Shown in pieces: positions 505 through 6,186 of a stretch of DNA of 6,186 nt (its first letter is position 1; every line of letters begins with the position of its first letter). Below the pieces are notes generated by a model, which was not told the DNA's origin, did no database searches, and worked only from the letters and a program-made list of their open reading frames with translations. A program made the position numbers and the translations under genes. Source of the stretch: Escherichia coli (GTDB lineage: Bacteria; Pseudomonadota; Gammaproteobacteria; Enterobacterales; Enterobacteriaceae); NCBI RefSeq assembly GCF_003334765.1, contig NZ_QOWT01000062.1; one strand, written 5' to 3'.

Positions 505-906
505 GTGGGAACCAAAGTGTCAGATATGCAGAAAAATGTGACTCCCGGCAGGCGAAAAGGCTGCCCTAATTATCCTCCCGAATTTAAACAGCTGCTTGTT
601 GCTGCCTCCTGTGAACCCGGGATATCCATCTCAAAACTTGCTCTTGAAAATGGCATTAACGCCAATCTGTTGTTCAAATGGCGACAACAATGGCGCGAGG
701 GAAAGCTGCTATTACCTTCTTCAGAGAGCCCCCAGCTACTTCCTGTGACTCTCGATGCAACTGCCGAACAGCCAGAATCGCTCGCAGAGGCCCCGGAAAC
801 CCTCAGTATCAGCTGTGAGGTAACGTTCCGGCACGGGACGCTCCGCTTCAATGGCAATGTCAGCGAAAAGCTCCTGACTCTGCTGATACAGGAACTGAAG
901 CGATGA
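505..906 (+). CDS. tnpA: IS66-family accessory protein TnpA (Orf1)
   Basis: ORF track 505..906. Position as first ORF inside the IS66 IRL and coupling to tnpB fit IS66 Orf1. The track start at 505 is a GTG; an in-frame ATG at 526 (MQKNVTPGRRKG...) is an alternative start. No strong Shine-Dalgarno for either. Confidence 0.8.
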   Translation: MGTKVSDMQKNVTPGRRKGCPNYPPEFKQLLVAASCEPGISISKLALENGINANLLFKWRQQWREGKLLLPSSESPQLLPVTLDATAEQPESLAEAPETLSISCEVTFRHGTLRFNGNVSEKLLTLLIQELKR

Positions 907-1250
907 TCCCGTTACCTTCCGGGACCAAAATTTGGCTGGTTGCCGGTATCACCGATATGAGAAATAGCTTCAACGGCCTGGCTGCGAAAGTACAAACGGC
1001 GCTGAAAGACGATCCCATGTCCGGCCATATTTTCATTTTCCGGGGCCGCAGCGGCAGTCAGGTTAAACTGCTGTGGTCCACCGGTGACGGACTGTGCCTC
1101 CTGACCAAACGGCTGGAGCGTGGGCGCTTCGCCTGGCCGTCAGCCCGTGATGGCAAAGTGTTCCTTACGCAGGCGCAGCTGGCGATGCTGCTGGAAGGTA
1201 TCGACTGGCGACAGCCCAAGCGGCTGCTGACCTCCCTGACCATGCTGTAA
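903..1250 (+). CDS. tnpB: IS66-family TnpB (Orf2)
   Basis: ORF track 903..1250 (115 aa). ATGA overlap with the tnpA stop at 903-906 implies translational coupling. Size and sequence (MIPLPSGTKIWLVAGITDMRNSFNGLAAKV...) are typical of IS66 Orf2 as I recall it. Confidence 0.85.
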   Translation: MIPLPSGTKIWLVAGITDMRNSFNGLAAKVQTALKDDPMSGHIFIFRGRSGSQVKLLWSTGDGLCLLTKRLERGRFAWPSARDGKVFLTQAQLAMLLEGIDWRQPKRLLTSLTML

Positions 1251-1278
1251 ATCTCTTTATCCTGGTTGTCACAGAATA

Positions 1279-1298
1279 AGCCCGGTAAAATACGGGCT
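1279..1298 (+). promoter_or_regulatory. hairpin (6-bp stem AGCCCG / CGGGCT, 8-nt loop) ending one base before the tnpC start codon
   Basis: Seen: AGCCCG(1279-1284) GTAAAATA CGGGCT(1293-1298) then T, then ATG at 1300. It occupies the position where a ribosome-binding site would be; no canonical Shine-Dalgarno is visible. A regulatory role is inference. Confidence 0.3.
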
Positions 1299-1299
1299 T

Positions 1300-2685
1300 A
1301 TGAACGACATCTCTTCTGACGACATCTTCCTGCTGAAACAGCGCCTGGCCGAACAGGAAGCGCTGATCCACGCCCTGCAGGAAAAGCTGAGCAACCGGGA
1401 GCGCGAAATAGACCATCTGCAGGCGCAGCTGGATAAACTCCGCCGGATGAACTTCGGCAGTCGTTCCGAAAAAGCCTCCCGCCGTATCGCACAAATGGAA
1501 GCCGATCTGAACCGGCTTCAGAAAGAGAGCGATACGCTGACTGGTAGGGTGTATGACCCGGCAGTACAGCGTCCGTTGCGTCAGACCCGCACCCGTAAGC
1601 CGTTCCCTGAATCACTACCCCGTGACGAAAAGCGACTGTTGCCTGCGGCGCCGTGCTGCCCGAACTGCGGCGGTTCACTGAGCTATCTGGGCGAGGATAC
1701 CGCCGAACAGCTGGAGTTGATGCGTAGCGCCTTCCGGGTTATCCGGACGGTACGGGAAAAACATGCCTGTACTCAGTGCGATGCCATCGTGCAGGCACCT
1801 GCACCTTCGCGGCCCATCGAGCGGGGTATCGCCGGACCGGGGCTGCTGGCCCGCGTGCTGACCTCGAAGTATGCAGAGCACACCCCGCTGTATTGCCAGT
1901 CAGAAATATACGGCCGGCAAGGTGTGGAGCTGAGCCGTTCACTGCTGTCGGGCTGGGTGGATGCATGCTGCCGGCTGCTGTCTCCGCTGGAAGAGGCGCT
2001 TCATGGCTATGTCATGACTGACGGCAAACTCCATGCCGATGATACCCCGGTCCAGGTACTGCTGCCGGGTAATAAGAAGACGAAGACCGGGCGGTTGTGG
2101 GCGTATGTTCGTGATGACCGCAATGCCGGGTCAGCGTTGGCACCTGCAGTGTGGTTCGCTTACAGCCCGGACAGAAAAGGCATCCATCCGCAGACTCATC
2201 TTGCTTGCTTCAGCGGTGTGCTGCAAGCGGATGCGTACGCCGGGTTCAACGAGCTGTATCGCAATGGTGGGATAACGGAAGCTGCCTGCTGGGCTCATGC
2301 CCGCCGAAAGATCCACGATGTGCACGTCCGCATCCCGTCAGCACTGACGGAAGAAGCCCTGGAGCAGATCGGTCAGTTGTACGCCATAGAGGCGGATATA
2401 AGGGGAATGCCGGCAGAGCAGCGGCTTGCTGAACGTCAGCGAAAAACGAAACCGCTGTTGAAATCCCTGGAAAGCTGGTTGCGTGAAAAGATGAAGACCC
2501 TGTTCTTCGGCTCTGGCCATGGTGGTGAGCGGGGAGCGCTACTGTACAGCCTGATCGGGACGTGCAAACTGAATGACGTGGATCCAGAAAGCTACCTTCG
2601 CCATGTGCCTGGCGTCATAGCAGACTGGCCGGTCAACCGGGTCAGCGAACTGCTTCCGTGGCGCATAGCACTGCCAGCTGAATAA
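1300..2685 (+). CDS. tnpC: IS66-family transposase TnpC (Orf3)
   Basis: ORF track 1300..2685 (461 aa), the longest ORF in the element. N-terminal heptad-like, leucine-rich region (LLKQRLAEQEALIHALQEKL...), a CxxC...CxxC zinc-finger motif (CCPNCGG ... CTQCD), and an acidic-residue-rich core consistent with the IS66 transposase. Ends 12 bp before the IRR region. Confidence 0.88.
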   Translation: MNDISSDDIFLLKQRLAEQEALIHALQEKLSNREREIDHLQAQLDKLRRMNFGSRSEKASRRIAQMEADLNRLQKESDTLTGRVYDPAVQRPLRQTRTRKPFPESLPRDEKRLLPAAPCCPNCGGSLSYLGEDTAEQLELMRSAFRVIRTVREKHACTQCDAIVQAPAPSRPIERGIAGPGLLARVLTSKYAEHTPLYCQSEIYGRQGVELSRSLLSGWVDACCRLLSPLEEALHGYVMTDGKLHADDTPVQVLLPGNKKTKTGRLWAYVRDDRNAGSALAPAVWFAYSPDRKGIHPQTHLACFSGVLQADAYAGFNELYRNGGITEAACWAHARRKIHDVHVRIPSALTEEALEQIGQLYAIEADIRGMPAEQRLAERQRKTKPLLKSLESWLREKMKTLFFGSGHGGERGALLYSLIGTCKLNDVDPESYLRHVPGVIADWPVNRVSELLPWRIALPAE

Positions 2686-2923: not shown

Positions 2924-4297
2924 TTATTTCAACGCTTCCGGCAGCGTCACAATCCACAGTTCACTGTCAGACTCCGGTTTCTCCAGTGGCTTCACTCTGA
3001 GGGTCGTTTCAACCTGCTTGTCGTCAAGCGTCAGCTTTCCTTCCGCGTTCACCCGATAATCCTTGAATGTCTTGCCCTCGACCGGATGTTGCATCGCCAC
3101 CTTCACGCCAAAGTCGTTATCGTTCGCCACCGCCAGCGTTTTGCTGTCGATCAGCGCCAACCCTTCAGCCTTCTCCTGCTGCCAGCCCAAGGAGCGCAGA
3201 TCAACAACCTGCGTTTTCTGCGCAAGGGTAATGCCGCGCTGTGACAGGGTTTTCTCATCATCAAACTCCGGATACTCACCCGGCTTGTCGAAGCCTGACA
3301 GGTCGCTCGCCTTATTGAGATCGACCTCGTAAATCAGGTTACGCATTCTGTTGTTTTTATCTCTTCCCTGTTCGATCAGCAGGATGTGCTGGTTATCGAG
3401 CGCCACGATGTCTCCGATTTTAGCGTCGCTGTTTTTGCTGTAGGCCGCGCTGTCGATAGGATAACCGTACATCGCGGTTTTTCCGCTTGCCGGATCGAAG
3501 CTCACCAGACGCGTAAACAGCGCCTTTTTCTTGCTCTTAGTGTCGATATCCAGCGTACTTTGCACGGCGACAATAATACGCCCGTCCGGCATACGGGTGA
3601 GGCCTTCAAAGCCGCGGTTCGCCTGACGCCATTTGAGGATATTTGGCAAACCGCCCGCAATCGCTTTTTCCCCTTCCGCCGCCTGCGGACCGTGGATTGC
3701 CAGGATTTTCCCTTTACTGTCGATGTTAATCAGGAACGGGCCATACTCATCGCACAGCCAGTAACCTCCTTTACCATCCGGAGTGATCCCTTCCGTATCC
3801 AGCCCGCGATTATCCCCCTTCAGTCTATGTAACGTGTCGCTGAAGGCCACTTCATTGGTGGAGCCAATCACGTCGCTTGCCAGCGGCAGACCGTTGATCG
3901 CGCCTTTATCGTCATGCAGAGGACGGGGATCGATGGCCTCCGCTTTGCCGTTTTGTACACGAATCGTCATCAGCAGCGGCGCGAAATCTGGCGTAACGAA
4001 AATTTTAGTTTCGTTTTTCCCCTCTTTCGGTGAATCCGCGTTCGGACCGCGATCGGTAATGGTTGCGAATGTCAGGGCATCGCCCTGTTTACCGGTGAAC
4101 AGCAGGCCAGAACCTATCCCAACCGGAAGGCCGTTCGGGAATGCACTGGCAAATGCGCCGGCATAGTTCACGTGCGTGCCTTCTGGAAAACTGACGACAT
4201 AGCGCTCAGCCGTAGGTTGTGCCGCCAGGGCAGAGAAAGAGAGCGTACAACCGATTAGCACGGGAATAATTTTTCTTTTCATATTGTTAGCATCCAT
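2924..4297 (-). CDS. secreted or lipoprotein-type beta-propeller protein, phytase-like / SdiA-regulated-domain family (function unknown)
   Basis: ORF track 2924..4297 - (457 aa). N-terminus MDANNMKRKIIPVLIGCTLSFSALAAQP has a signal peptide with a lipobox-like LIGC; an alternative start is the internal Met giving 2924..4282. Motifs ANRGFEGLT and AEGLA resemble the GFEGL and AEG(V)A motifs I recall in E. coli YjiK (SdiA-regulated / phytase-like beta-propeller clan). Family assignment is from memory, not a search. Confidence 0.7.
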   Translation of the reverse strand: MDANNMKRKIIPVLIGCTLSFSALAAQPTAERYVVSFPEGTHVNYAGAFASAFPNGLPVGIGSGLLFTGKQGDALTFATITDRGPNADSPKEGKNETKIFVTPDFAPLLMTIRVQNGKAEAIDPRPLHDDKGAINGLPLASDVIGSTNEVAFSDTLHRLKGDNRGLDTEGITPDGKGGYWLCDEYGPFLINIDSKGKILAIHGPQAAEGEKAIAGGLPNILKWRQANRGFEGLTRMPDGRIIVAVQSTLDIDTKSKKKALFTRLVSFDPASGKTAMYGYPIDSAAYSKNSDAKIGDIVALDNQHILLIEQGRDKNNRMRNLIYEVDLNKASDLSGFDKPGEYPEFDDEKTLSQRGITLAQKTQVVDLRSLGWQQEKAEGLALIDSKTLAVANDNDFGVKVAMQHPVEGKTFKDYRVNAEGKLTLDDKQVETTLRVKPLEKPESDSELWIVTLPEALK

Positions 4298-5014: not shown

Positions 5015-5308
5015 TCAAATATCACCTGATGTAATGTCAATGATAATATTAAGTGCGCTCTGAACAACATCTTTCTTGGTGTGATTAACATCTGACAAAA
5101 AGAACATCAGCTTCTTTATTATGTTCTTGTTGTTTATTATTTCACGCTCACAGAATAAAGCGTTGACTGCCTCTTCTATGACATTTCTCTCGTAAAAAAA
5201 TTGAGAGTTAGCTTCATATAAAATATTGGCCAATTTTTCACCAAAAACCATATTATAATAATCACTGTGCATCTTTCTCCCCCAGGGTTCAGTCAATAAT
5301 TTTACCAT
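5015..5308 (-). CDS. hypothetical protein (97 aa) in an AT-rich segment
   Basis: ORF track 5015..5308 -. Complete ORF with an in-frame stop two codons upstream of the ATG. Codon usage is very AT-rich, in contrast to the IS66 region. No recognisable domain. Confidence 0.4.
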   Translation of the reverse strand: MVKLLTEPWGRKMHSDYYNMVFGEKLANILYEANSQFFYERNVIEEAVNALFCEREIINNKNIIKKLMFFLSDVNHTKKDVVQSALNIIIDITSGDI

Positions 5309-5610: not shown

Positions 5611-5727
5611 TTAAGTGAGATTCTGATTTTCAAATTGTTCCGGACTGAGACCGCCACACCAACTGTACCATCGCCAGCGATTGTAATCGCACTCGATATA
5701 ATTAAGTAAGTTTGCTGATTTTGCTGT
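5611..5727 (-). pseudogene. C-terminal remnant of an IS3-family transposase (OrfB-like), degraded
   Basis: Minus-strand open frame without a start translates to [38 protein letters not shown], stop at 5611-5613 and upstream stop at 5728-5730. The YIE-x-YNR...[10 protein letters not shown] pattern matches IS3-family OrfB C-termini as I recall them. Only about 30 aa of homology is retained. Confidence 0.5.
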
Positions 5728-6017
5728 TTACTGCGACAGATGTAAAGCTGTGGTGATTCATGCAGACTAAGTTCACGGACTCCGGCAGTAACACCGATGC
5801 ATTCTGCAAGCTTCAGATCTTAACTACGAAATTCATGCGAATGGTGTTTACGTTTTTTTACTGGTTGAAACTGTTTTGTCTTGTGAGTCACCTCTGACTG
5901 AGAGTTTACTCACTTAGCCGCGTGTCCACTATTGCTGGGTAAGATCACAACACTTTAAAATGCCCTATATAGGGTTAACCAGTAATTATCTGTATGATAG
6001 CTTTGAGTTCGGGAGGA

Positions 6018-6040
6018 GGTAATGACTCCAACTTACTGAT
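6018..6040 (-). repeat. IS1 terminal inverted repeat (insB-proximal end)
   Basis: GGTAATGACTCCAACTTACTGAT differs by one base from the IS1 right inverted repeat as I recall it (GGTAATGACTCCAACTTATTGAT). Confidence 0.88.
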
Positions 6041-6186
6041 AGTGTTTTATGTTCAGATAATGCCCGATGACCTTGTCATGCAACTCCACCGATTTTGAGA
6101 ACGACAGTAACTTCCGTCCCAGCCTTGCCAGATGTTGTCTCAGATTCAGATTATGTCGCTCAATGCGCTGAGTGTAACGCTTGCTG
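6033..6186 (-). CDS. insB: IS1 transposase InsB, C-terminal part (5' end outside window)
   Basis: Codon-by-codon translation of the minus strand from the TAA at 6033-6035 reproduces the InsB C-terminal sequence ...[18 protein letters not shown]. Not in the ORF track because there is no Met in the window. Confidence 0.9.

Follow-up and report, generated by a model that had tools for sequence, protein, structure and literature searches.

The IS1 end at the edge of an Escherichia coli chromosomal island segment is assigned to IS1F, most likely the copy adjoining the fec locus

The window, by which we mean the whole stretch of 6,186 nucleotides of Escherichia coli DNA analysed here, is E. coli chromosome. 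At least 80% of it is covered in 1694 of 5426 complete E. coli genomes, many of them at 99.8-100% identity, and the closest genome examined, that of E. coli H3, differs from it by 1 mismatch in 6186 positions. A plasmid origin was considered and rejected because of these 1694 complete genomes, the matches listed all being chromosomes; coverage of at least 80% was also reached by 3 records labelled as plasmids, but these are very large and resemble chromosomes.

In H3, the gene order starts with CP4/P4-type island genes, comprising CbtA/YeeU toxin-antitoxin genes and genes for zinc-ribbon proteins. An IS66-family element occupies window positions 505-2685, with tnpA, tnpB and tnpC as ORFs of 133, 115 and 461 aa; the set looks complete and has the island genes on one side and a truncated DUF6404 gene on the other. 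At 2924-4297, on the minus strand, lies a gene annotated as belonging to the 'esterase-like activity of phytase' family, the 457-aa product of which looks secreted; its position is conserved, and many E. coli plasmids carry it too. IS3 and IS5 fragments lie between this gene and a YmgB/AriR-like gene at 5015-5296 (minus strand), and further on comes the decayed left end of an IS3-like element at 5611-5948 (minus strand), the reverse complement of which begins with TGATCTTACCCAGCAATAGTGGACAC..., a sequence that we take to resemble the IS3 terminal repeat. After this repeat there is an orfA-like start interrupted by stops; RefSeq annotates fragments in 5611-5948 as partial IS3 family transposase, and at the same position an ST80 genome (locus L004) carries a near full-length but frameshifted IS3-family gene. 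A spacer of 69 bp (5949-6017), the last 9 bp of which are TCGGGAGGA, separates the IS3-like remnant from the right-hand part of an IS1 element at 6018-6186, which reads on the minus strand and is interrupted by the end of the window. Beyond the 69-bp spacer, H3 continues with IS1 and then ykiE, fecI, fecR, fecA, fecB and fecC.

The 169 bp at 6018-6186 were compared in a three-way alignment with two copies of IS1 from E. coli K-12 MG1655 (NC_000913.3), IS1A at 19796-20563 and IS1F at 4518472-4519239, both carried as curated mobile_genetic_element features in that genome. All 169 bases are identical to the curated 'insertion sequence:IS1F', of which they represent positions 600-768, and the sequence from 6018 onward reads GGTAATGACTCCAACTTACTGATAGTG... 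Against IS1A, 154 of the 169 bases are the same (91.1% identity) and 15 differ, at window positions 6036, 6072, 6083, 6108, 6109, 6125, 6132, 6135, 6138, 6150, 6156, 6165, 6171, 6174 and 6177. The stretch is clearly nearer to IS1F than to the other K-12 types, since IS1B, IS1C and IS1D all lie within 9 mismatches of IS1A (PMC12428005). Over the full element, IS1F and IS1A differ at 73 of 768 positions, a divergence of about 9.5%, as also published (73 mismatches, 90.5% similarity), with IS1F given as the fourth IS1 type of K-12 (PMC12428005). By megablast, the 169-base stretch gives E = 2e-82, a match far above chance, and RefSeq names the product of identical copies 'IS1-like element IS1F family transposase'. 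The original prediction, which held that this end carries several nucleotide differences from the common IS1 and belongs to a divergent isoform, is thereby borne out, and exact identity to the IS1A reference was not found. Its further statement that the copy is not of the common K-12 type holds for the IS1A/E, B/C and D types but not for K-12 as a host, as IS1F is itself a K-12 resident, present there as a single copy beside fecI.

The edge of the element at 6018 can be set by two unrelated flanks, as the sequence GGTAATG follows ...GGGAGGA in the window and ...CATGGTC in K-12; in the window, the last bases of the flank, ...GTTCGGGAGGA, directly meet the first bases of the element, GGTAATGACTCCAACTTACTGATAGTGTTTTATGTTCAGATAATGCCCGATGACC... 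From this edge inward lies the right terminal inverted repeat (IRR), GGTAATGACTCCAACTTACTGAT, which is 23 bp long (6018-6040), begins with GGT and is identical to the IRR of IS1F. The predicted difference within the terminal repeat is found at repeat position 19, window position 6036, where the window has C and IS1A has T (ACTTACTGAT versus ACTTATTGAT). This C is the base carried by the left repeat (IRL) of IS1F and IS1A alike; with it, the two repeats of the element agree more closely, at 20 of 23 positions in IS1F as against 18 of 23 in IS1A. The change at 6036 is also silent for the protein, turning CAA into CAG in the last sense codon of insB. The window itself holds the IRR only, the IRL being present at the related loci. 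In some strains, an 18-bp unit (TACTGATAGTGTTTTATG) is tandemly duplicated over the inner part of the IS1F IRR, for instance in NZ_CP031215.1 (L004:3013-3048), the unit corresponding to window positions 6030-6047, of which the window has one copy. This duplication also accounts for the 187-base span over which the top 18 E. coli matches aligned to the 169-base query, and a different element was rejected as the explanation of that span.

Reading on the minus strand, the direction of insA to insB in this element, positions 6033-6186 encode the last 50 codons of insB with the stop codon TAA at 6033-6035, namely the part of the frame that gives the C-terminus of the InsAB' transposase and that ends about 15 bp inside the IRR end. 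The 50 residues are all identical to IS1F InsB, and 49 of them are identical to IS1A InsB, the one change being S to L, in agreement with the predicted closeness of this C-terminus to IS1. Within the window part, 14 codons are changed relative to IS1A, 13 of them synonymously and 1 nonsynonymously; for the full genes, synonymous and nonsynonymous codon changes between IS1F and IS1A stand at 30:17 in insB and 15:7 in insA. Because the changed codons of the window part are almost all synonymous, the pattern indicates an old divergence of two lineages, each of them selected for function, rather than decay of this copy or sequencing error. A rival origin of the differences would be an ordinary copy of the IS1A type that had decayed by mutation or was read with sequencing noise, and some decay has indeed taken place at the fec locus, where the linked copies are defective. 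However, thousands of independent assemblies share the same 15 bases without change (2332 records with at least 99% identity), and this recurrence, together with the complete identity to IS1F and a codon pattern that marks selected divergence as opposed to random decay, refutes such an origin, to which we give practically no chance.

Identity over 169 bp does not by itself separate IS1F proper from another isoform that is identical across that stretch, such as an IS1F-like plasmid variant, a type of the IS1G, IS1H, IS1X or IS1SD kind, or an IS1F/IS1A recombinant. IS1F-like variants do exist, as on an IncFIB plasmid (NZ_CP018207.1) a copy with the same left flank as in the window differs from IS1F at 12 of 768 positions (98.4% identity) and carries the IS1A allele at 6 of the 73 positions diagnostic between IS1F and IS1A. 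Nevertheless, this variant already departs from the window at 4 of the first 169 positions (63, 66, 92 and 96), whereas the window carries the IS1F allele at 15 of 15 diagnostic sites. Furthermore, in all six full-length fec-linked copies examined that share the window flank, five chromosomal and one on a small plasmid record, the element departs from K-12 IS1F by 0-5 substitutions; two of the six also have an indel, in one case a deletion of 2 bp and in the other a duplication of 18 bp. Another isoform or a recombinant is therefore very improbable here. Based on these comparisons, we conclude with high confidence, from 169 bp at one end of the element, that window positions 6018-6186 are the IRR end and the 3' part of insB of IS1F, specifically of the copy that adjoins ykiE-fecIR-fecABCDE in an E. 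coli chromosomal island, this fec-linked copy being most likely an immobile relic. The identity of such a copy as IS1F is already known, as it is a curated feature of MG1655, a named PGAP product and the subject of published work. For annotators, it is useful that the correct label for the window edge is IS1F and that the locus is the boundary of fec (ferric citrate uptake).

The distribution of the two junctions of this copy was counted with a 160-bp query per junction against the 5426 complete E. coli genomes. The junction between the island and the IRR of IS1F, as in the window, occurs in 2071 genomes (38%), IS1F thus standing beside the fec genes in about 40% of complete E. coli genomes, and strains sharing the exact flank and IS1F junction include 042, ATCC 11775, 83972 and E2865. 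The opposite junction, between the IRL and ykiE-fecI, occurs in 2597 genomes and is the same in K-12, where the IRR side instead faces yjhU. This K-12-type IRR junction is found in 357 genomes, the matches listed all being K-12 laboratory derivatives, and the window-type IRR junction outnumbers it about sixfold. On these counts, the window shows the common arrangement of the fec-linked IS1F, and that of K-12 is likely a derived one. The same numbers limit the suggestion that the isoform could help to place the lineage or replicon: because the same junction occurs in 38% of complete E. coli genomes, which are diverse, and the junction is also found on IncFIB plasmids, the isoform hardly discriminates among lineages, but it does mark the fec locus. 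On IncFIB plasmids, the IS1 end at the window-type junction is slightly diverged, with 97.5% identity over the 160-base probe.

In IS1, InsA is a transcriptional repressor that binds the terminal repeats, while the InsAB' transposase arises when ribosomes shift frame by -1 at an A6C motif and so join insA to insB'; this transposase acts on both repeats of about 23 bp and normally leaves a target duplication of 8-9 bp. Part of this mechanism is restated in PMC12428005. In related genomes with the same junction, alignment beyond the 169 bp of the window reveals insA and TTAAAAAAC, and the element has its usual length of 768 bp in E2865 and 042 but is shorter in H3 (766 bp) and longer in ST80 (786 bp). 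A simple insertion would have left 8-9 bp duplicated at its two ends; no 9-bp direct repeat was found at the flanks of the element in H3, ST80, E2865, 042 or K-12, the flanks being TCGGGAGGA and GAAATCCCC in the first four and AACATGGTC and GAAATCCCC in K-12. This bears on the history of the copy in these genomes and leaves its identity as IS1F unaffected: at least one flank has been replaced since insertion, or the copy arrived within a larger segment.

The coding frame of the fec-linked copies examined is broken as well. At element positions 541-543, where IS1A has TGG, the copies of K-12, 042, E2865 and ST80 have the stop codon TAG, while in H3 TGG is kept and a 2-bp deletion follows directly, as seen in the alignment of its 766-bp element; the RefSeq remark on these copies is 'internal stop'. 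Among the copies with a broken insB, that of H3 spans L003:12018-12783 and that of K-12 spans L001:973-1740, and others are at L007 and L009. The occurrence of two types of lesion at the same spot of insB suggests independent inactivation events. In strain 455 (L008:1296-2560), the annotation gives the fec-linked IS1F an N-terminal truncation and places an istB of the IS21 family (IS100kyp-like) as the gene that follows it; within the 1.2 kb examined beyond the truncated IS1F of this strain, there is no annotation of ykiE or fecI.

Because the copies examined lack a target-site duplication and have a broken insB, the fec-linked IS1F is probably an immobile relic that marks the edge of the fec region, a reading that, for the genome of the window itself, is drawn from the sequences of its relatives. 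It has been reported that K-12 strains keeping only IS1B, IS1C, IS1D and IS1F display essentially no IS1 transposition (PMC12428005). For the source genome of the window, we infer that the element beyond the 169 bp, lesions included, resembles that of the closest relatives; an intact IS1F copy may nonetheless be present there, as a near-identical copy with TGG is found on IncFIB plasmids with the same left flank.

The absence of a target duplication and the existence of two IRR junctions imply that this locus has a history of rearrangement. Since there is no target duplication and since the right-hand side has two alternative junctions, to the island and IS3 remnant in 2071 genomes and to yjhU in 357, we tentatively propose, as a possibility to which we give somewhat less than even chances, that the fec-linked IS1F may sit at the breakpoint of an adjacent deletion or recombination, mediated by IS1, from which the fec arrangement of K-12 arose, and that the flank on IncFIB plasmids with an intact IS1F-like copy may be the source or the product of an exchange between chromosome and plasmid. 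If true, this would add a minor detail to the history of the genome and not a new kind of element.

Three known elements stand close to the one at the window edge. IS1F of K-12 MG1655 (insA7/insB7) is identical to it over the 169 bp, with the same IRR, and has ykiE-fecI on its IRL side as in the closest genomes of the window; it differs in the IRR flank, which is yjhU in K-12 and a decayed IS3-like remnant within a genomic island in the window. IS1A/IS1E, the 'consensus' IS1 of K-12, has the same family and organisation, and is close at the protein end (49 of 50 residues of the InsB C-terminus) and in the IRR (22 of 23 positions identical), although it is separated from IS1F by the 15 differences in the window part and the 73 overall. 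IS1A and IS1E are the copies that do transpose in K-12, whereas IS1F does not detectably do so (PMC12428005). The IS1F-like copy on the IncFIB plasmid has the left flank of the window, that is, the YmgB/AriR-like gene, the IS3 remnant and the spacer, but diverges from the window at the 4 sites given above, keeps TGG intact with no internal stop in insB, and is followed by evgA/evgS-like genes where the relatives of the window type have fec. On the other side of this region (L005:4077-5850), the plasmid carries an IS1A copy, and a fragment of the chromosomal island thus appears to have an IS1 element on either side of it on an IncFIB plasmid.
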